DNA of 64,000 nt, taken from positions 96,001-160,000 of the forward strand of contig JBCCHT010000021.1 of the NCBI GenBank assembly GCA_039028615.1, in the 5' to 3' direction. The notes under the pieces are model-generated. The model made no database searches. It had not been told where the DNA came from and saw only the letters and a program-made list of their open reading frames with translations. The stretch is from Myxococcota bacterium (GTDB lineage Bacteria > Myxococcota_A > Polyangia > Nannocystales > Nannocystaceae). Positions 53,066 through 62,929 of the stretch are shown one piece after another (the first letter of the stretch is position 1; each line of letters starts with the position of its first letter). Made by a program: the position numbers and the translations under genes.

Positions 53066-53586
53066 GGCGGGCACTGCCTGATCCTCAATCTATCGCATGA
53101 ACTCGGCACGAGCGTTCGTTGCAATTTGGGCCGCGGCGTCGAGCAACGGAGGGTGACGACGATGGCCCCTACACCTACGCCGTGACTCGGGGTTGGCATG
53201 AAGGCGCACCCCCGAGGCTCGCGGTGAAACGACCACTCGCCTCGAGGACGAACCGGATCACAGTTCTGCGTAGGACGTGCTGTTTCATGTCACGTTGAAA
53301 TCTACTCACATGCTCGTCGCTACATTCGCTCGCTTCCGATCGTACGAGTGGTCGTTGGATCGGTCTCGGGGCGTCGCGACGAACGTGAGACCGGCTCGGA
53401 ACACGGTGAGAGGACGCGGCTTCGAGCGAGGTGTCCCGATCGAGTTCTGGCGTTCGGCCGGGTGTTGCTTGGGCTATCATTGGGTGGCTTGGGTCGGAGC
53501 TTGGTAGCCGTCGTCGCGCGTGCGCGAGTCGGAGTCCGGCGGAGCATGGATGCTTGGTCGAAGTTCGAGGCAGGAGGCAAACAACG

Positions 53587-56500
53587 GTGAGATCGGAACA
53601 GACTCGACATGGATGTACCGTCGTCGCGGTGAGCGGCACGCATGGGGTGGCGCTCGCGATGGGGTGGCCGCAGGGACAGACGCAGGACCTGCTGGGGTTC
53701 GCAATCTCGCGTCGTGATGGCGGGGGGGAGCCGACTTGGTTACCGGTGGTCGTGCAGTTCGAGGGTCGGCCGATCGAGACGGGCAAGCTCTACCCGTCGA
53801 ACGAGTCGCCGATTCAGTCGATGGTGTGGAACGACTTCGGGGTCTCGGACGACAAGACCAGCCACGGCCTGCCCCCGGACACCGAATTCACCTATTCGGT
53901 CGCACCCGTGCGCGGGACCCCGGACCAGTTCCAGGTGTGCGAGGACCAAGCGGTCGCGGTCACCGTGCGCACCGAGCCCGAGTACGCCGAGAAGGGAGCC
54001 TCGGTGTTCTTCAACCGCGGGCTGTCCGATTCGCAGGAATACGAGCGCCTATTCGGCGAAGGCCACGTGCCCGATCCAAACAAGCCCGAGGACGCCGAAG
54101 CGATGGCCTGGCTCGCGCGGGGGCTGGATGTCGCCATCATCAAGTTCATCGAAGAGGCCATCGACGACGAGAGCCTGACCCTCGACGCGGCCGTGTATCA
54201 CCTGGACCATCAGGGGGTGATCGATGCGCTGGCCAAGCTCGGCAAGCGTTGTCGGGTGTCGATGGACTGGGGCAGCGAGGAGGAGCACGCCGATCCTCCC
54301 AATACGGGCCCCAACCAGCCGGCCTACGATCGGCTGACGAAGGCGGGGGTGACGGTGCATCAACGCCGGCACGTCGCCATCAGCCACAACAAGTACATGC
54401 TGCTCAAGGGAGCCGACGGCAAGGGCAAGGCGATCCTCACTGGTTCGACCAACTTTACCAACGGAGGCATCAGCACGCAGTCCAACCAGAGCGTGATCGT
54501 GCGCGACCCCGAGGTCGCGGCGGTGTACCTCGAGGACTTCGAGCGCGTGCTGCAGGACGACAACAAGGGGCTGCGCGAGTTCAACGCGCAAGGGGAGGTC
54601 ATCAGCGACTCTCTCGAGGTCTACTTTTCGCCGCACAGCGCCAGCGACACCCCCGATCTCGACCGCTTCAAGGCACTCGCTCGAGACGCCGAGTCGAGCA
54701 TGCTGTTTTTGACCTTCCGAATGACCTCGCACGAAGTGCTCTCGGAGATCTTCAGCCGCGGTGACTCGCAGGACGACGACCTGCTGGTCTTCGGCGTGGC
54801 CGACCGCGTCTATAAAGGCAACGACGGCAGCGGCGACCGCCTGATCTACGACGAGTCCCTGGCGGGCGACCCCCGCGTGGTCTCGGCCGCGGACCCTCTC
54901 GACGACCTCTCGGAGGAACCGGGCGAGGACGTCCTGTACGACGAGCTCAAGCGCGAGGGCTACGACCCGCTGGTCCATCACAAGATCCTGCTGGCGGACT
55001 GGGACAGCCCCGAGTGCACGGTGGTGACGGGCTCGGCGAACTACTCCAACAACTCCAGCAAGAACAACGACGAGAACTCGCTGGTGATCCGCGGAGACCA
55101 GCGGCTGGCACAGCAGTACTTCGTGGAGTTCGCTCGGCTCTATACCCACTGGCGTGGTCGCTGGCTGGAGGAGCGCAACTACAAGCACGAGCATCAGGCG
55201 CTGACGCTCGCCGCTGACTCGAGCTGGACGAAGACCTGGTACTCGGGCAGTCGCAACACCGAGCTGCTGAAGTTGGCGCTCGGGGCGGAGGCATTCGCGC
55301 GGACGATGGAGCCCACACCAGCGGAAAAGGTCGCGCGGGAGGCCGCTCGCAAGGCCGCGGCGCCTCGGATGGAGCACGTCATCGTGCTGATGCTCGAAAA
55401 CCGCTCCTTCGATCACATGATGGGCTTCCTGCCCGGGGTCGAGGGCGTGCTGGGCGACGACGGCAAGGTCGATCCGGCTCGCTACAACTACGCCGATCCG
55501 CTCGACTCGACCTCCGCCAAGTACACGGTGGGCCAGGCGGAGTACTTCGCGATCCCTGCCGACGATCACAAAGACGAATACGGCGGGCCCTCGCACTCCT
55601 ACCCGGCGGCGACCGAGCAGATCTTCGGCCAGAAGTATCAGCAGTCGTCTCCACCGGGGAGCGAGCCGGCGGTGAACAACGGCTTCATCAAGAGCTACAT
55701 CAAGGAGCTGAAGTTCTCGCAGAAGGTCGATGACCCCAAGGCGAAGCATGTCCGGGTGGCGATCGATGCGTTCTCGCCGACGCAGATGCCATCCATCAGC
55801 ACGCTGGCCGAGGAGTTCTGCGTGTGTGACCACTGGTACTCCGAGGTCCCCGGGCCCACGGAACCGAATCGGCTCTTCACCCATGCGGCGACCTCCGAGG
55901 GGCTGACCCACAACGTGTGGGACCACGCGATCCAGTCGCGGACCATCCAGGAGAACTTGGCCGCCAAGGGCCACTCCTGGCGGTTCTACTACCAAGATCT
56001 GAGCGACTCGAATCAGTTCCCTGCGCTCAAGCGGGAGGTGGACCAGGTCCGGCCGTTCGAGAAGCTCTACGAGGACCTCCGAAGTGGGGATCTGCCGGCG
56101 TACTCGTTTCTGTGCCCCCGGTACTCGGACACCGACACGGAGTTCGCCAACTCGCAGCACGCGCCCTACGACGTGCGCTACGGCGAGCACCTCATCGCGG
56201 ACGTGTACGAGGCGGTTCGCCGTAGCCCCAAGTGGAAGAACATCCTGCTCATCGTCACCTACGACGAGCACGGCGGGTTCTATGACCACGTCTACCCGCC
56301 GCGCGATGGCGTCCACAACCCGGATGGCCTGACTTCACCGACGGCCTACGATGCCGAGCTGAACAAGTCCAACCCCGACAAGTACGGCTACCTGATGGGG
56401 GACGACTACAAGTTCACCTTCCAGCGGCTGGGATGTCGGGTTCCCGCGGTGCTCATCTCACCGTGGATCGCCAAGGGCACGGTCGACTCCACTCGCTATC

Positions 56501-57042
56501 AGCACACCTCGATCGCGGCCACGCTCAAGGAGGTCTACGAGCTGCCCGAGTTCCTGACGCGACGGGATGCGCAGGCCAACACGTTCACATCCGTACTCGC
56601 TCGAGCGACGGAAGCCCGCGACGACGCGCCGCTCACCGTGCCGCGGCCGCCGTTGCCGGGGCAGGGGTCGAACGAGGCCGCGCCCGCTCCCGGGACGAAG
56701 CCGCTGGGGGTGCTGCAGCGAGGGGTCTACGCGACGCTGACTCACCTGGACGGTCACCCCGACTCCGGCAAGCCACCGCGCGTGCCCAAGACCCAGGCCG
56801 AGGCATCGGCGTACATCAAGGAGCGCTACGACGCCCACAACGCATTCCACCACGCGCTCGCGAAGAACGGCCGCTTCGAGGTCTACCAGGACAAGGCCGG
56901 GGAGCATCGGTGGCGCCTGCGGGACGGCGCCGGGCAGATCATCGCGAGCTCGGGCGAGGGCATGAAGACCAAGGCCGAGGTCGACGCCGAGATCGAGACC
57001 ATCCGCAACCTGGCGCCGTCGGCCGACCGCGCAGACGTTTGA
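53587..57042 (+). CDS. Fusion of phospholipase D (two HKD domains), phospholipase C/phosphoesterase (PlcH/AcpA family) and DUF1508
   Basis: GGAGG RBS + GTG; HNKYMLLK...GSTN (54385), HHKILLAD...GSAN (54976); 'HVIVLMLENRSFDH', 'GPTEPNR', 'TYDEHGGFYDHV', 'LGCRVP'; C-terminal 'FEVYQDKAGEHRWRL...SGEG'. Confidence 0.88.
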   Translation: MRSEQTRHGCTVVAVSGTHGVALAMGWPQGQTQDLLGFAISRRDGGGEPTWLPVVVQFEGRPIETGKLYPSNESPIQSMVWNDFGVSDDKTSHGLPPDTEFTYSVAPVRGTPDQFQVCEDQAVAVTVRTEPEYAEKGASVFFNRGLSDSQEYERLFGEGHVPDPNKPEDAEAMAWLARGLDVAIIKFIEEAIDDESLTLDAAVYHLDHQGVIDALAKLGKRCRVSMDWGSEEEHADPPNTGPNQPAYDRLTKAGVTVHQRRHVAISHNKYMLLKGADGKGKAILTGSTNFTNGGISTQSNQSVIVRDPEVAAVYLEDFERVLQDDNKGLREFNAQGEVISDSLEVYFSPHSASDTPDLDRFKALARDAESSMLFLTFRMTSHEVLSEIFSRGDSQDDDLLVFGVADRVYKGNDGSGDRLIYDESLAGDPRVVSAADPLDDLSEEPGEDVLYDELKREGYDPLVHHKILLADWDSPECTVVTGSANYSNNSSKNNDENSLVIRGDQRLAQQYFVEFARLYTHWRGRWLEERNYKHEHQALTLAADSSWTKTWYSGSRNTELLKLALGAEAFARTMEPTPAEKVAREAARKAAAPRMEHVIVLMLENRSFDHMMGFLPGVEGVLGDDGKVDPARYNYADPLDSTSAKYTVGQAEYFAIPADDHKDEYGGPSHSYPAATEQIFGQKYQQSSPPGSEPAVNNGFIKSYIKELKFSQKVDDPKAKHVRVAIDAFSPTQMPSISTLAEEFCVCDHWYSEVPGPTEPNRLFTHAATSEGLTHNVWDHAIQSRTIQENLAAKGHSWRFYYQDLSDSNQFPALKREVDQVRPFEKLYEDLRSGDLPAYSFLCPRYSDTDTEFANSQHAPYDVRYGEHLIADVYEAVRRSPKWKNILLIVTYDEHGGFYDHVYPPRDGVHNPDGLTSPTAYDAELNKSNPDKYGYLMGDDYKFTFQRLGCRVPAVLISPWIAKGTVDSTRYQHTSIAATLKEVYELPEFLTRRDAQANTFTSVLARATEARDDAPLTVPRPPLPGQGSNEAAPAPGTKPLGVLQRGVYATLTHLDGHPDSGKPPRVPKTQAEASAYIKERYDAHNAFHHALAKNGRFEVYQDKAGEHRWRLRDGAGQIIASSGEGMKTKAEVDAEIETIRNLAPSADRADV

Positions 57043-57054
57043 GGAGCAGTTTTC

Positions 57055-60000
57055 ATGACCGATCAGAATCAACCTGTGACCTTCCTCGACGGCGGCGGGC
57101 TCGACATCTCGAGCCAACATGCCCAGGACCTGTCTGGAGAACGCGGCGAGCAGCGCTTGCTGGACCGCTATCGGCTGATGCAGCGCGGGCTGGTCTATCC
57201 CGCGCCCTACGCCCGTTTCGTGAGCTACTGGACGGCCGAGGGCAAGTCGATCACGCGCGCGGACATCACCGCCGTGATGAAGCAAGTGCGTGACGAAATC
57301 CACGAGCGCTTTGGCTCCACCAACACGTCGGCCATCGTCGGCGTGAATTTCGATCTGTACCGGCAGTGGTGCGAAGACGATGGCGGCAGCATCCCGGCCG
57401 GTATGAAGCTGGCGTTCCCGGAGGACGGCAGCGAGCGTTCTTCGGTGTTCGACCGCTCGCGCGGGGTCTTTCAGGACTCCGAGGCCAGCCTGTGGTTCCA
57501 CATCAAGTCGGACGAGCAGGCCAACCTCGAGGGGGTGAACGAGGTGGTGTCCAAGGCCCTCGGGGACTTGGTGGGGCGCAGCGTGTACCAGGACTGCAAC
57601 CAACGGCTGCGGCCGGGGAGCGGGGACGCGGGGCGGGTGCTCGGCAAGCGCTTCGCCGAGAACCTCAACAACCCCACCGACCCGGTGACCATCGCTCACC
57701 ACACGCTGGTGGGGCACGACGACATCGAGCACCTGGGGGCGTCCTACGCCCTCGCTCAGCGCTTCTATATCAACTGGGAGCGCATCCACCAGATGGCGGA
57801 GGAGCAGGTCGAGGACATCATCGGCCGCAACTCGAACGACGAATTCCTGCCGAACCGAGACACGCGGAGCCACATCAAGTCCGCTCGACAGCAGGACGCG
57901 CAGGGCAACACCACGTTCGTGATGCGGCTCGGGCTGCCGTTCGGAGCTTCGCCCTACGCTTCACGCCCCGACCTCGCGCTGGCCGGCAACAACCGCGGGG
58001 ACGAGGCGGGAATCTACTTCGCCGGGTTCGCCAAGCGAGTGGACGTGTTCGAGACGATCATGAGCGCACAGATCGGCGACACGCCCGGCTTCATGAACGA
58101 CCGGTTGTTCAACAACCTGCGCTCCGATCTGGGCGGGTTCTTCTACATCCCCAACCGTCGCGACCTGGGCCTCGTGCCCGAGCCGTGGGCGAAGGAGTCG
58201 GAGCGAGACTGGACGCGCTTCCCGGGCATCGACTGGTCGCGGCTGTCCCGTCACTTCACCGACAAGTCACCCAACGGGTGGATGTACTACAACCACAAGA
58301 ACTATCTGTACGAGATGGCCACGATGCCGACGGAGCGGCGGGCACAGCTGAACCCGCCCTCCACGCGCATCTTGACCTTGCTCATGGACATGTTCGCCCG
58401 CTGGCAGGACGCCTGGTACTTCGCCAAGGGCCAAGACGACATGGGGTCGCTATACGACCACATCGCCAGCGACCCCGACTTTGGCCCGGAGAAGGCCAAG
58501 GAGGTGCATGGGCTGTCCATCATGGAGCGCAAGGGCTGGGCCACGCGCATGCAGTGCCGGCTCTACGCGACGGATGCCTATGGCTATCGAGGGCGGCGGA
58601 AGGTCGATGGGGTCGATCGCCCGGGCGCCGATACCTACCGGATCCACCCCGAGGAGATCATCGTGGGGGCGCTGCCGGATCTGAGCCTGGGGCAGGGCCG
58701 CTACTGCATGAAGTACCTGCGCGAGGAGGAGCGTCAGCCGGCGTTCTTCCGCGGCCTGACCGAGGCCTCCGGCGTGGGCCACGTGCTGCCCGACCATCAG
58801 AAGCTGGTCGACCTCGGGCTCGGCAGGCTCTTGGCCGAGATCGACGCCAAGGCCGAGTCGGTGGCCGATGACGACAAGCCGTTCTACCGTGCGTGCCGTT
58901 TGTCGCTCGAGGGCGTGCAGGACCACCTCGAACGCTACGCCGCGCTCGCCGACTCGATGGCGGCCGCGTGTGCGCACGGGCAGGCGGCGGAGCGCAACAA
59001 CCTCGAGCAGATCGCGGCTCGCTGTCGGGCCCTACGCACCGACCAGCCATCGAGCATGGTCGAGGCGGCGCAGCTCATCTTCACCTATCACACGTGTCTG
59101 CACCTCAACGGTGAGCCGGTCTCGGTCGGGCGTCTCGACCAGTACCTCGGGCGCTTTCACGACGCGGACATCGAGGCGGGGCGCCTCACTCCCGAGGGCG
59201 CGCAGGAGATCATCGACGCGCTGTGGGTCAAGCTCTCGGAGAAGATCCTGCAGAACCGGATCTTCATTCATGACCACCAGCCCTACGGAAACCTGGCCAT
59301 GGGTGGCGGCTCGGGGCCGTACCCGCAGGGGGCGTCGCTCGGGCAGTGGATCATGCAGGTGACGGTCGGCGGCTGGGTTGCCGACGAGGAGAAGGTACCC
59401 ACGCCCGCGTACAACGAGGTCACCCGGCTGTGCATTCGCGCCTCGGGCCGCCTGCCGCTGACGGCCCCGTGTCTGTCGCTACGGGTCAATGCCCACACCC
59501 CCGCCGACCTGCTCGAGGAGGCCGCACGCGCGGTCCTCTCTGGTGGCGCGCACCCGATCCTGCTGCACGACGACAAGATCGCGGCCGGGCTCGCGCAGTC
59601 GGGCGACGGGATCGGCGAGGGCGACCCGAACAACCCGACCGCGTCTACCCCGGTCGCGGCCAAGGCCCAGGGGCGCTGGGACAGCCAGGTCAGCATCGCC
59701 AGCGCGCGTAACTTCGCCAGCGACGGCTGCTACGAGCCGCTGTTCACCGGGCAGACCTGGTTTGCGCTGGGGGGCTTTTCAACCCTCAACCCCCTGGAGT
59801 GCGCGCTCAACCAGGGCCGTTCCTACGCGTCCGCGGGGGAGACCTTCCTGCACGGGCAGAACCTCTCGTTCCATACCCCCCCGGCGGAGCAGATCGAGAG
59901 CTTCGAGCAGCTCCTGGAGCTTTACTTCACGCACTTCCGACTGCTGTGGGCCAAGACCTTCGACGGCCAGATATCCACCTTCGACGCTCTGGCCGATATC

Positions 60001-60996
60001 TGCCCGGCGCCGCTGCTGTCGGTGCTGACGGACGACTGCCTGGCGAAGGGACAGGACATCTACGGGGGAGGGGCACGCTACAACGTCTACGCGCCGTGCT
60101 GGATCGGGCTCAGCACCACCATCAACAGCCTGTGGAACATCAAGCGCATGGTGTTCGACGAGGACTCGATGGTCACTTCTCTGGCGGAGCTGCTCGAGTG
60201 CCTGATGTGCGACTGGGGCAACAAGATGGTCGAGCCCATGGTCAGCTCGTTGATCGGGCCCAACCGCATCGCGGCCAAGGCGGTTCGGTTCCAGCGCCTG
60301 CGGGAGATTGCCTTGTCTATGCCGCGCTACGGCGAGGGCAACCCCGAGGTGGACGAACTCGGTGATCGCATCGTGCACGAGGTCGCGAGGTTGACCGTCG
60401 ACGTGCTGCGGAACCCGGCCGAGTCCACGGCCAAGAAGATGCTGGACTTCGCCAACCGGCACGGCACGCCGGAGCAGCCCTTCGGAGGCTTCCAGATCCA
60501 CCCGGGCACGGGGACCTTCGAGAACTTCTCCGCGTTTGGTGTGGGCAGCGGGGCGTCGGCGGACGGACGGCGTCTCAACGCTCCCATCGCCAGCGACATG
60601 AGTGCGGCCCCGGCACGTTCCGATGCCCCGGCCGACCCCGCGTACGTGCCCTTCGATGCCGCTCTGGCCAGCAGCGAAGGCGATGGAGCCAGCGCGATGT
60701 GGGACGGAGCGCCCACCGACTTCAACATCGACGAGACCTTTCCCGTGCAGACCCTCGCCGACATGTTCGGTCAGTTCGCCCGCGGCAAGGGCAGCAACAT
60801 CCTGACGGTGACCGTCGCGTCGCGGGAGACCTTCACCGAGGCACCCAGCCACCCGGAGTCCTACGACCTACTCCGCGTCCGCATGGGAGGCTGGTCCGAG
60901 TACTTCACGTCGATGTTCCCCGTCAGTCAGGTCCAGCACCAGCGGCGGCCGGTCATGACTCCACCCCACGACGCCGCCGACACCAAGGAGGGATGA
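57055..60996 (+). CDS. DyP-type heme peroxidase fused to glycyl radical enzyme (PFL-like) domain
   Basis: GAGGAG RBS; DyP motifs LWFHIKS, FAENLNNP, GASY..AQ, IIGR, SHI, MRLGLPFG, GIYFAGF, GGFFYIP (aa 1-366); GRE motifs SVGRLDQYL, GCYEP (C892), ASADGR, LRVRMGGWS (G1279). Confidence 0.88.
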   Translation: MTDQNQPVTFLDGGGLDISSQHAQDLSGERGEQRLLDRYRLMQRGLVYPAPYARFVSYWTAEGKSITRADITAVMKQVRDEIHERFGSTNTSAIVGVNFDLYRQWCEDDGGSIPAGMKLAFPEDGSERSSVFDRSRGVFQDSEASLWFHIKSDEQANLEGVNEVVSKALGDLVGRSVYQDCNQRLRPGSGDAGRVLGKRFAENLNNPTDPVTIAHHTLVGHDDIEHLGASYALAQRFYINWERIHQMAEEQVEDIIGRNSNDEFLPNRDTRSHIKSARQQDAQGNTTFVMRLGLPFGASPYASRPDLALAGNNRGDEAGIYFAGFAKRVDVFETIMSAQIGDTPGFMNDRLFNNLRSDLGGFFYIPNRRDLGLVPEPWAKESERDWTRFPGIDWSRLSRHFTDKSPNGWMYYNHKNYLYEMATMPTERRAQLNPPSTRILTLLMDMFARWQDAWYFAKGQDDMGSLYDHIASDPDFGPEKAKEVHGLSIMERKGWATRMQCRLYATDAYGYRGRRKVDGVDRPGADTYRIHPEEIIVGALPDLSLGQGRYCMKYLREEERQPAFFRGLTEASGVGHVLPDHQKLVDLGLGRLLAEIDAKAESVADDDKPFYRACRLSLEGVQDHLERYAALADSMAAACAHGQAAERNNLEQIAARCRALRTDQPSSMVEAAQLIFTYHTCLHLNGEPVSVGRLDQYLGRFHDADIEAGRLTPEGAQEIIDALWVKLSEKILQNRIFIHDHQPYGNLAMGGGSGPYPQGASLGQWIMQVTVGGWVADEEKVPTPAYNEVTRLCIRASGRLPLTAPCLSLRVNAHTPADLLEEAARAVLSGGAHPILLHDDKIAAGLAQSGDGIGEGDPNNPTASTPVAAKAQGRWDSQVSIASARNFASDGCYEPLFTGQTWFALGGFSTLNPLECALNQGRSYASAGETFLHGQNLSFHTPPAEQIESFEQLLELYFTHFRLLWAKTFDGQISTFDALADICPAPLLSVLTDDCLAKGQDIYGGGARYNVYAPCWIGLSTTINSLWNIKRMVFDEDSMVTSLAELLECLMCDWGNKMVEPMVSSLIGPNRIAAKAVRFQRLREIALSMPRYGEGNPEVDELGDRIVHEVARLTVDVLRNPAESTAKKMLDFANRHGTPEQPFGGFQIHPGTGTFENFSAFGVGSGASADGRRLNAPIASDMSAAPARSDAPADPAYVPFDAALASSEGDGASAMWDGAPTDFNIDETFPVQTLADMFGQFARGKGSNILTVTVASRETFTEAPSHPESYDLLRVRMGGWSEYFTSMFPVSQVQHQRRPVMTPPHDAADTKEG

Positions 60997-61000
60997 GGCC

Positions 61001-62929
61001 ATGGAACGCGCATTCGATCGAATCCTCGTGATCATGTTCGAAAACCAGTATCGCGAGTACGTGATGGCCAACCCCTATATGCGTGGGCTCGCGCGGCAGG
61101 GGATCGACATGGCCAACTTTCACGGCGTGATGCATCCGTCGCAGACCAACTACATCGCCTCGGTGTCGGGCGAGCTGTGCAACGTCACCGACGACGACTC
61201 GCCGGGCCTGCTGCCGCAGCGCACCATCGTGGACCTCATCGAGGAGGCTCCCGGTGACCTACAGTGGAAGGCGTACATGGATGGCTATCGGCCGGCCAAG
61301 ACGCCCTGGACCCCGGAGCTGGTGCCACAGGACGACTTCCCCTACGTCATCAAGCACAACCCGTTTTCATCGTACGGCAACATCGTGCGCAACGAGTTGC
61401 GGTGGAAGCGAATCGTGGACCAGACGCAGTTCTTCCGCGACGTGCTCAACGGCGAGCTGCCCCACTACGCCTGGTTTACGCCAGACATGTGGAACGACGG
61501 GCACTACACCGACGGGACCCAGAGCGAGCCGGCGGAGCGCGCCCCGGCCCTGGTCGACCAGCTGGCGCGGTGGCTCGAGGAGTTCTTCGGGGCGCTCGAC
61601 TTTCCTGGGCCCGACTCGAGGCTGCCCAAGGGCACCCTGGTCGTGGTGACCTTCGACGAGTCCGATTTCCTGAAGAAGTTCGATGCGGGCAAGAAGTACA
61701 CCTACGACGGTCCGAACCAGGTCTATACCGTGCTGCTGGGCGACATGATCGAGCCCGGCGTGCAGGACGGGGCCTACAACCACTACAACTTGCTGCGCAC
61801 GATCGAGCTGAACTTCGGGCTCGGCGACCTGGGCAAGAACGACGCGGGGGCGACTCCGCTGCGGTTTTTGTGGGGGCAGACCTTCGACTGGGAGCCGCCC
61901 GAGGATACGCCGATCCACACCCATGGCCACGTCGCGAGCGCGGGCCTGGGGGATGTGCTGCACGTGGTCGTCCGTGATGAAGACGGCGGCTTGCGGCACA
62001 CGACCTTCAACGGCCAGGCCTGGGGGGTGCCCCGACCGATCGGAGCTCGTTCGACCGGTCCGCTGTGCATGGCCGCGAGGGGCGACCAGCTGGTGCTGAT
62101 GTTCGCGGGCGACAAGGGGCAGCTGTCGTCGTTGACCTACGACCTTCAGCACGGCTGGTCCTCCGAGCCCGAGGCCGTGGCCGTGGGGGAGAGCCGACAC
62201 ATCGCGTTGTGTGCCTTCGGAGGCGGCAGCGAGCTGATGGCCGTGTGGGTCGACGGGGAGGCGATCAAGTCGCGCCGCTACGACGGCTCGGGTTGGGCGC
62301 CCGACACGACCGACACCGGGCACACCACCCAAGGGGCGCTGGCCATCGGTGCGATCGGCCCTTCGCTGTTCTTGGTGTTCCAGAGCGAGGATGGGGGCCT
62401 GAGCGCGGTTACCTACAACACCGCGGACTTCAACACGACGACCGTCGCCACCTCCAAGTACTCGGGACCGTGGGATGACACCGTGGCCAACCAGTGGTCG
62501 CCGAGCGCATTCGCGGTGGGGCGTTTCGGCGCCGCAGCGTTCGAAGGGACGCCGAAGGAACTCGAGCCCGTCACCGTGCCGGTCGAGTCCGGGGCCCCGG
62601 TGGTCATGGCCGCCCACGACGGCACATTGCACCTCGCCCACGCGGGGGTGGCCAACCGTCAGCTGCTCACCGAGCGCTTCTCGGTGCCCGGTGTTCTCAC
62701 GCCCAAGCTCCGCGTCTCGTACAAGGCCACCGAGGACAAGACCACCAGCAACGGCTACGGCACGCTGGCCGAGGCCGGGTGGACGAGCTCGGAGCCCATC
62801 GACTTCAGCTGGGTCGGTGAAGGCGGGGCCGCCAGCATGGCGACCGTGGGCGACGAGCTGGTGCTGCTCGCACAGCCCGAGGCGGGCGGCCCGTTGCAGA
62901 TCCTCGTGGCGGGCTACGAGCAAGAGTGA
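61001..62929 (+). CDS. Acid phosphatase/phosphoesterase (SapM/fungal acid phosphatase-like) with C-terminal beta-rich domain
   Basis: 'VIMFEN', 'HPSQTNY', 'KHNPF', 'NDGH', 'TFDE', 'NHYNLLRTIE'; 4 bp from the previous stop. Confidence 0.85.
   Translation: MERAFDRILVIMFENQYREYVMANPYMRGLARQGIDMANFHGVMHPSQTNYIASVSGELCNVTDDDSPGLLPQRTIVDLIEEAPGDLQWKAYMDGYRPAKTPWTPELVPQDDFPYVIKHNPFSSYGNIVRNELRWKRIVDQTQFFRDVLNGELPHYAWFTPDMWNDGHYTDGTQSEPAERAPALVDQLARWLEEFFGALDFPGPDSRLPKGTLVVVTFDESDFLKKFDAGKKYTYDGPNQVYTVLLGDMIEPGVQDGAYNHYNLLRTIELNFGLGDLGKNDAGATPLRFLWGQTFDWEPPEDTPIHTHGHVASAGLGDVLHVVVRDEDGGLRHTTFNGQAWGVPRPIGARSTGPLCMAARGDQLVLMFAGDKGQLSSLTYDLQHGWSSEPEAVAVGESRHIALCAFGGGSELMAVWVDGEAIKSRRYDGSGWAPDTTDTGHTTQGALAIGAIGPSLFLVFQSEDGGLSAVTYNTADFNTTTVATSKYSGPWDDTVANQWSPSAFAVGRFGAAAFEGTPKELEPVTVPVESGAPVVMAAHDGTLHLAHAGVANRQLLTERFSVPGVLTPKLRVSYKATEDKTTSNGYGTLAEAGWTSSEPIDFSWVGEGGAASMATVGDELVLLAQPEAGGPLQILVAGYEQE

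Follow-up and report, generated by a model that had tools for sequence, protein, structure and literature searches.

Glycyl radical enzymes (GREs) are described as O2-sensitive catalysts whose radical is made by an activase with S-adenosylmethionine (SAM) and a [4Fe-4S] cluster (PMC6453916). Fusions in which a DyP-type heme peroxidase precedes a domain resembling pyruvate formate-lyase (PFL) have been recorded before. They make up DyP subclass P2 ('DyP B-PFL'), defined by Yoshida and Sugano (2022), who proposed that the DyP guards the PFL and its activase from H2O2 (PMC9719856). A fungal example is Chaetomium dyprx; the significance of the fungal fusion was termed elusive, and its gene responded to H2O2 with 3-fold and to peracetic acid with 18.5-fold induction (PMC5041501). 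Here we analysed a fusion of this kind, encoded in a stretch of 64,000 nucleotides from a Myxococcota bacterium of the family Nannocystaceae (assembly GCA_039028615.1, contig JBCCHT010000021.1, positions 96,001 to 160,000), hereafter called the window.

The window protein has the P2 architecture, a class-P DyP followed by a PFL-like domain, and its family shares with P2 an Asp-to-Glu change and a patchy lateral spread (PMC9719856). A previous reading of the window, made from the sequence alone (the sequence-only reading), had pointed to DyP-PFL fusions in earlier surveys, and both papers bear it out. They take it that a PFL activase exists and either assign no function or a protective one, whereas carriers of the window family are mostly without an activase; the available text of the two papers reports neither this absence, nor a class-V fusion, nor phosphoesterase neighbours. 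No biochemical study of a DyP-GRE fusion was found in literature searches, outside whose reach most subscription journals lie. The architecture is already known and its mechanism is undescribed. We propose, with a probability of about 0.5, that the fusion represents a GRE branch that would be activated by heme and peroxide independently of SAM and iron-sulfur clusters, that would have evolved twice as different DyP classes replaced an upstream activase, and that would act on RNA or phospholipid breakdown products in aerobic bacteria, fungi and protists.

A DyP-type heme domain and a GRE barrel in one chain

The sequence-only reading had described one open reading frame of 1313 codons joining a DyP to a GRE. 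Both domains were recovered by profile in this uninterrupted frame (Table 1), with H273, R291, C892 and G1279 exactly where it had placed them. It had started the GRE part at about residue 500; by alignment, in which the N-terminal ends of stand-alone GREs meet its first helix and W454, this start lies nearer residue 434. The Pfam search that it had suggested matched Dyp_perox_C (residues 205-367, E 2e-12) and PFL-like PF02901 (553-1122, E 1.8e-99), the Gly_radical match (1208-1285) falling slightly below its cut-off (20.6 vs 22.2 bits), and the DyP model TIGR01413 scored above its own (105.6 vs 100.5 bits). The DyP domain could be aligned to the solved class-P DyPs 9obr and 8u4z, and Glu202 (RFAEN) occupies the distal Asp position of the GXXDG motif.

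All 119 best homologues listed, of 348 matches among 8000 scored candidates, contained the two domains, with 50-76% identity across 96-100% of the length. In an alignment of 138 homologous sequences, the proximal heme ligand H273 and, in the GRE half, H576, C892 and E894 were invariant, while the distal R291, Q768 and G1279 were each kept in 136 (for G1279, the remaining two are truncated). The whole RxGGW loop was present in 136/136 full-length homologues. Loss of C892 or G1279 among homologues, which the sequence-only reading had named as fatal to its proposal, was thus not seen, and selection has preserved the catalytic residues of both halves. Among the 150 nearest GRE-domain relatives, of which 36 were scanned, each of the 22 proteins of at least 1100 residues had a DyP domain; the shorter clade members P0127, P0128 and P0138 had none and look truncated.

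The finger-loop Cys and the C-terminal Gly loop place the second half among the GREs, and its C-x-E motif supplies the Glu base typical of GRE 1,2-eliminases, whose role, like the standard SAM/[4Fe-4S] activation, is set out in PMC6453916. The barrel, the C-x-E loop and the Gly loop are shared with propanediol dehydratase (5i2a), glycerol dehydratase, CutC, HypD, IseG and YbiW/PflD. Propanediol dehydratase is the best solved relative by sequence and by fold, and its His166 is equivalent to H576, a position at which a CutC-family protein has Asp. Identity to these eliminases is only about 20-23%, and the fusion differs from them in its RxGGW loop, its N-terminal heme domain and its lack of an activase. 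Family cut-offs were not reached, the best score being 226.6 vs 678.2 bits (TIGR01774), with equivalogs at 104-166 vs 1000-1150 bits. The likeness to PFL is one of superfamily, from which the database name 'formate acetyltransferase' derives: PFL carries an adjacent Cys-Cys pair, whereas the fusion has a single Cys in G891-C892-Y893, and TIGR01255 gave 29.4 vs 994.2 bits. An identity as CutC or PFL was rejected on the family scores and the CutC comparison. The fusion would work like a GRE eliminase and is not a PFL, yet it is mostly without the cognate radical-SAM activase, usually encoded adjacently, that marks the family.

An AlphaFold2 model of residues 101-1300, built from 56 sequences, had a confidence (pLDDT) of 88.8 and a predicted template modelling score (pTM) of 0.91, with both domains packed together; this pTM suggests that the relative placement of the DyP and GRE domains is predicted with confidence. 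The linker was modelled at pLDDT 65-92 per 10-residue block. In Foldseek the top match was propanediol dehydratase (5i2a/5i2g, template modelling (TM) score by target 0.72-0.77), and all top matches listed were GREs with TM by target of at most 0.78; the fold is the 10-stranded GRE-type barrel. Prediction of a complex between the DyP plus linker (residues 30-432) with heme and the Gly domain (1195-1303) scored 0.02. A dip in confidence at the Gly loop (1276-1286) was considered as a sign of DyP interference and rejected, the dip being identical in a GRE-only model.

Radical-SAM activases and a second fusion family

The sequence-only reading had found no radical-SAM gene in the window, and this holds for the entire 212-kb contig (C21), on which none of the genome's 66 PF04055 matches lies. 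The genome (12.3 Mb, 68% GC, 96.7% complete) has the fusion as its sole PF02901 match, and NrdD, the class III ribonucleotide reductase (RNR), was not found in it. Its best match to the activase model TIGR02494 was only 2.6e-7, and activases of the sister lineage used as queries found nothing better than E 0.002.

We then counted activases, as TIGR02494 matches at E<=1e-10 and TIGR02491 matches at E<=1e-8, in 79 carrier genomes: that of the window and 78 others, for which completeness was not given. The 78 loci are the best 78 of 211 matches (G070 included) and are not independent, because 16 are from Pedobacter and 6 from Acinetobacter. Neither model matched in 59/79 carriers, nor in 6 of the 7 records titled complete chromosomes, among which G055 has a sub-cut-off NrdG-like match. 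TIGR02494 matched in 10/78 carriers and TIGR02491 in 18/79. A TIGR02494 match was found in 7/7 carriers with a second, non-fused GRE, mostly adjoining that GRE, vs 3/72 without one; those three owe their match to orphan PflA-like genes, intact in G071 and frameshifted in G039, and in G035 to a distant radical-SAM protein. Orphan pflA-like genes in genomes where no PFL was found are those of Saccharothrix sp. Mg75 (intact, L170:4685-5410) and Trinickia terrae (frameshifted, L171:6779-7238).

A control within Flavobacterium, the genus of G028, gave the same picture. PF02901 matched in 40/401 genomes; an activase was present in 35/35 with a stand-alone PFL vs 0/5 with only the long frame, three of these five sharing flanking genes and two being called fusions by frame length and score alone. 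At the level of the locus, an activase was detected in 1/79 class-P fusion loci, that one beside a canonical PFL, vs 63/80 loci of the sister-query set with the same probe, and directly upstream in 17/17 sister stand-alone GRE loci that include upstream DNA. Activases track stand-alone GREs, not the fusion. The stand-alone GRE clade L088-L106 and L137 has its own activase upstream.

The sister query returned 20 metagenome loci at >=34% identity: 17 with an activase upstream, 2 that begin inside the gene, and one (L091) that is itself a fusion. In L091 a DyP stands in the activase's place, and the activase is absent from its 5.5-kb contig. This peroxidase is of class V, AnaPX/DyP2-like (AnaPX-like at E 8e-69), with matches to 5c2i and 4g2c (E about 1e-68), and cannot be aligned to the window DyP. 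The class-V fusion family comprises 13 clusters, Chryseobacterium defluvii and Flavobacterium sp. XS2P12 among them, and in 13/13 the Asp/His/Arg of the DyP and the Cys/Glu/Gly of the GRE are retained. In G597, the one class-V genome tested, no activase match was better than 8e-6. A search of plasmids gave no class-V fusion.

In the GRE-domain tree, class-P fusions branch outside a group formed by class-V fusions and stand-alone sisters, with SH-aLRT values of 99-100 on the main branches; an earlier tree had given a similar picture. A single fusion clade was rejected by the approximately unbiased (AU) test (p 9.9e-5), run on a quick LG+G4 tree of 36 chosen rows with a group named after the earlier tree had been seen. 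The simplest reading of the tree is two independent DyP-GRE fusions. Possibly, instead, a single fusion was later altered by a swap of its DyP and by a reversal, and in that case too heme would have been recruited twice. G1055 had a frequency of 1.00 in 28 class-P and in 3 class-V fusions, 0.16 in 19 sister GREs and 0 in 17 further GREs. Together with the insert that follows it, visible against CutC, this residue unites the two kinds of fusion, and few stand-alone relatives have it, which makes it a candidate docking site.

Proposed activation and its alternatives

The peroxidase half is proposed as the switch because the activase is mostly missing in carriers and because the pairing probably arose twice. 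Self-activation, in which peroxide-activated heme would install the Cys/Gly radical and so replace the radical-SAM activase, has in our judgement even odds, and the chemistry that we infer for it is as follows. H2O2 or a peracid would convert the DyP heme to Compound I, and the oxidising equivalent would hop via Trp and Tyr residues (candidates are W394, W450, W454, Y455, W1054, Y893 and W1280) until it reached Cys892 and Gly1279 of the same chain or of a dimer partner. Gly1279 would act as the radical store; the Cys892 thiyl radical would take hydrogen from a carbinol carbon, and Glu894 and His576 would promote the kind of 1,2-elimination known from diol dehydratases and lyases. With a radical that peroxide could reinstall, such an enzyme might work in aerobes at low O2. 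The sequence-only reading had offered installation of the radical in cis or its shielding; the matched activase controls and the second, independent DyP fusion favour installing over shielding alone.

If this proposal holds, the fusion would resemble prostaglandin H synthase, fatty-acid alpha-dioxygenase and class I RNR, in which an oxidised metal centre makes a protein radical that sets off catalysis; in prostaglandin H synthase heme generates the catalytic radical, and three kinds of radical source serve the barrel of the RNRs (PMC10246556). Profile and sequence searches found no homology of the fusion's heme domain to cyclooxygenases, and a heme-driven route into the GRE/RNR barrel was not met in literature searches. 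In Streptomyces lividans the DyP DtpA is required for maturation of the radical enzyme GlxA; unlike the activation proposed for the fusion, DtpA acts in trans and extracellularly on a copper enzyme, by a proposed oxidation of Cu(I) (PMC9719856).

Several observations weigh against self-activation. O2 destroys a glycyl radical, and a peroxidase does not remove O2. Deep-branching copies occur in Mastigamoeba and Pelomyxa, which we take to be low-oxygen amoebae. The activase check across carriers, called for by the sequence-only reading, stood for the 59 genomes only, since some activase-like match was present in 20/79, including fusion-only genomes with the intact (G071) and the frameshifted (G039) PflA-like genes. 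The window genome itself encodes an orphan NrdG-like radical-SAM protein of 211 residues (84.8 bits vs a cut-off of 126.1), beside an EVE-domain gene and on another contig than the fusion (G000:C1:464572-465204; L084:8573-9208). The distal acid is mostly Glu (122/138, with Asp in 14/138 and His in 2/138), and Glu is able to stand in for the distal Asp in DyPs (PMC9719856). The two proteins with His, P0131 and P0133, lack the distal Arg as well and have intact Cys and Gly loops; they form a sub-branch whose heme pocket has been rebuilt. As relay markers peculiar to the fusion, W454, W1280 and the aromatic residue that follows the Cys were discarded, because activase-dependent relatives have them too. 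Finally, the peroxide induction of the fungal gene fits a shield equally well, and a putative fungal PFL activase is named in PMC5041501.

Part of this suits a DyP that would only shield against peroxide, as proposed in PMC9719856, with the radical coming from a remote or unrecognised radical-SAM enzyme (the orphan NrdG-like protein, an AmmeMemoRadiSam-like or QueE-like one, or another). Besides the NrdG-like gene, the TIGR02491 matches, the G071 gene and the fungal activase, it can draw on the 66 radical-SAM matches of the window genome and on weak Fer4_12 matches left in 5/5 carrier genomes probed. We nevertheless consider it unlikely: most carriers match neither activase model, the sister-lineage queries failed in the window genome, activases follow stand-alone GREs, and a housekeeping enzyme would need to recognise the fusion in every host. 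The fusion was moreover not found in any of 36 same-family or 5 same-genus genomes searched, and in the same-genus genome G083 both flanking genes lie 31 bp apart with no fusion between them. Its gain or loss thus concerns one gene alone, and such gain or loss across 9 named phyla fits self-sufficiency.

Heme might instead make a transient Cys892 thiyl radical at each turnover or burst, like class I RNR or cyclooxygenase, with no lasting glycyl radical and O2 possibly as co-substrate. Most carriers are aerobes, judged by name, aromatics flank both radical sites (Y893, W1280), and the RNR classes show that the same barrel takes three radical sources (PMC10246556). The unbroken retention of G1279 and the RxGGW loop in full-length homologues, expected for a glycyl site in use, speaks against it, a structural role for the loop being possible, and we hold this option to be quite unlikely.

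The GRE half as a sacrificial radical sink or sensor, or as a damager of macromolecules, would make the fusion a factor in oxidative stress or conflict, instead of an enzyme with a small-molecule substrate. The strong peracid induction in the fungus (PMC5041501), the patchy distribution (0/36 same-family and 0/5 same-genus genomes) and neighbours of the phospholipase D (PLD), trypsin-nuclease and MBL types with weak PADLOC domain hits could be read in this way. Yet H576, E894 and Q768 on the substrate side are conserved, as are the hydrogen-bonding loops, PADLOC 2.0 matched no system for the fusion protein (P0001) and gave only weak domain-level hits for its neighbours, and activase-dependent sister GREs have the same neighbour kinds, which indicates a shared metabolic substrate; we rate this reading as very unlikely. 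An assembly artefact joining two genes, which the sequence-only reading had feared, or a decaying chance fusion has practically no chance given the 119 full-length two-domain homologues, the 78 genome loci with closed chromosomes among them and a GC content at third codon positions (GC3) uniform along the gene, even if the assembly is metagenomic and a sequencing-run search listed no RNA dataset with the gene and no second holder, its only holder perhaps being the source sample.

Neighbour genes, hosts and meaning

The fusion gene is closely flanked by two genes with phosphoesterase-type domains (Table 1). In the upstream gene the true start is probably further downstream than annotated in the table, the closest solved protein is plant NPC4 (E 2e-65), and only one full HKD motif was found in its PLD-type part. 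The lectin beta-propeller of the downstream gene rests on a predicted-model structure match (TM about 0.7). The idea of an obligate three-gene module was given up, since G083 carries the flanking genes without the fusion.

Table 1. Features of the DyP-GRE fusion locus (window positions) and members of the class-V fusion family
Feature	Position	Strand	Evidence or remark
DyP-GRE fusion gene	57055..60996	+	1313-aa ORF, no internal stops; Pfam and TIGR matches; homologues
Class-P DyP-type heme domain (residues 45-369)	57187..58161	+	E202, proximal H273, distal R291, D349; TIGR01413
Conserved linker (residues about 370-433)	58162..58353	+	W394; consensus NGxMxYNHKNYL
Glycyl radical enzyme barrel (residues about 434-1300)	58354..60954	+	Pfam, sequence and Foldseek matches
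H576	58780..58782	+	aligned to His166 of propanediol dehydratase 5i2a; 138/138
Cys loop C892-Y893-E894 (thiyl Cys, eliminase-type Glu)	59728..59736	+	C892 and E894 138/138
W1054-G1055 plus insert of ~20 residues	60214..60279	+	candidate DyP docking or relay site
Gly loop R1276-M-G-G1279-W1280	60880..60894	+	136/138; other 2 truncated before the loop
Upstream gene: PLD-like, PF04185 phospholipase C-like, DUF1508	53431..57042	+	12 bp from fusion
Downstream gene: PF04185 phosphoesterase, PLL-like lectin beta-propeller	61001..62929	+	4 bp from fusion
Class-V fusion members	L091:581-4492; L219:8415-12329		also P0168, P0169, P0276-P0286

Across carriers the neighbours differ from locus to locus, and the kinds that recur are PLD, PF04185, 5'-nucleotidase, S1/P1 nuclease, type I phosphodiesterase, metallophosphoesterase, EEP, endonuclease NS and HAD proteins. 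Nuclease- and phosphoesterase-type hydrolases made up 13/101 neighbour families vs 2/122 genes more than 5 kb away (Fisher p 9e-4), or 13/58 vs 2/63 among annotated genes, in a category defined after the data had been seen and counted by hand. Such a hydrolase lay within 2.5 kb in 27/79 loci, in 13 of them on the same strand and within 100 bp. The class-V fusion of C. defluvii is downstream of a XendoU ribonuclease gene and an FGE-sulfatase-domain gene, and L091 also has an FGE-sulfatase-domain gene upstream. In sister GRE loci that include downstream genes, 6/13 had a HAD-like protein (weak matches), a metallophosphoesterase or RNase T2, and one had a DUF2278-LTD protein.

From the C-x-E loop, His576 and these hydrolases we infer a diol or amino alcohol derived from RNA or phospholipids. 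The weakest step of the proposal, and a tentative one, is that hydrolysis of phosphodiesters would most likely supply the substrate in the form of a vicinal diol or amino alcohol, for example a nucleoside, a ribose unit or the head group of a glycerophospholipid; the group that leaves may be phosphate.

The carriers span the 9 named phyla. That the host is probably aerobic, as had been supposed from the window, agrees with a heme-copper oxidase (COX1) encoded in its genome. A myxobacterial host fits the size and GC content of the genome (12.3 Mb, 68%) and a neighbouring kinase family, which the window has in common with Nannocystis and Polyangium loci. The fusion was also seen on 8 plasmid records (6 Ralstonia solanacearum megaplasmids, one Asticcacaulis plasmid and one partial Hymenobacter match). 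Archangium violaceum (L173:6288-9926) and Vitiosangium (L174:7096-10749) have a second, shorter paralogue of ~1215 residues with an RTGGW loop. Eukaryotic copies (P0146, P0147, P0124 and P0142) bear extra domains or extensions: a long N-terminal extension in Mastigamoeba, a C-terminal DUF2278 in Pelomyxa, an N-terminal C2 domain in the choanoflagellate Diaphanoeca, and a C-type lectin in the mussel Mytilus coruscus, whose sequence ends before the Gly loop in the scan.

Elsewhere in the window genome, ~19 radical-SAM matches cluster at G000:C17:21000-110000, possibly a large biosynthetic region for ribosomally synthesised and post-translationally modified peptides or other products, and a 1229-aa frame at G000:C1:468749-472435 (-) holds dozens of Cys-rich CGDGxC repeats. 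Sub-cut-off NrdG-like matches similar to that of the window genome occur in several myxobacteria, cyanobacteria and actinobacteria.

If the proposed self-activation is true, a widespread single-chain GRE that can be recharged by peroxide would do away with the activase rule and bring GRE chemistry within reach of aerobes. It would add a further, heme-based way to light the radical in the GRE/RNR barrel and provide a radical lyase scaffold for biocatalysis without a fragile activase. Natural controls, and a common route to the substrate, would come from the two independent fusions together with the sisters that depend on an activase.

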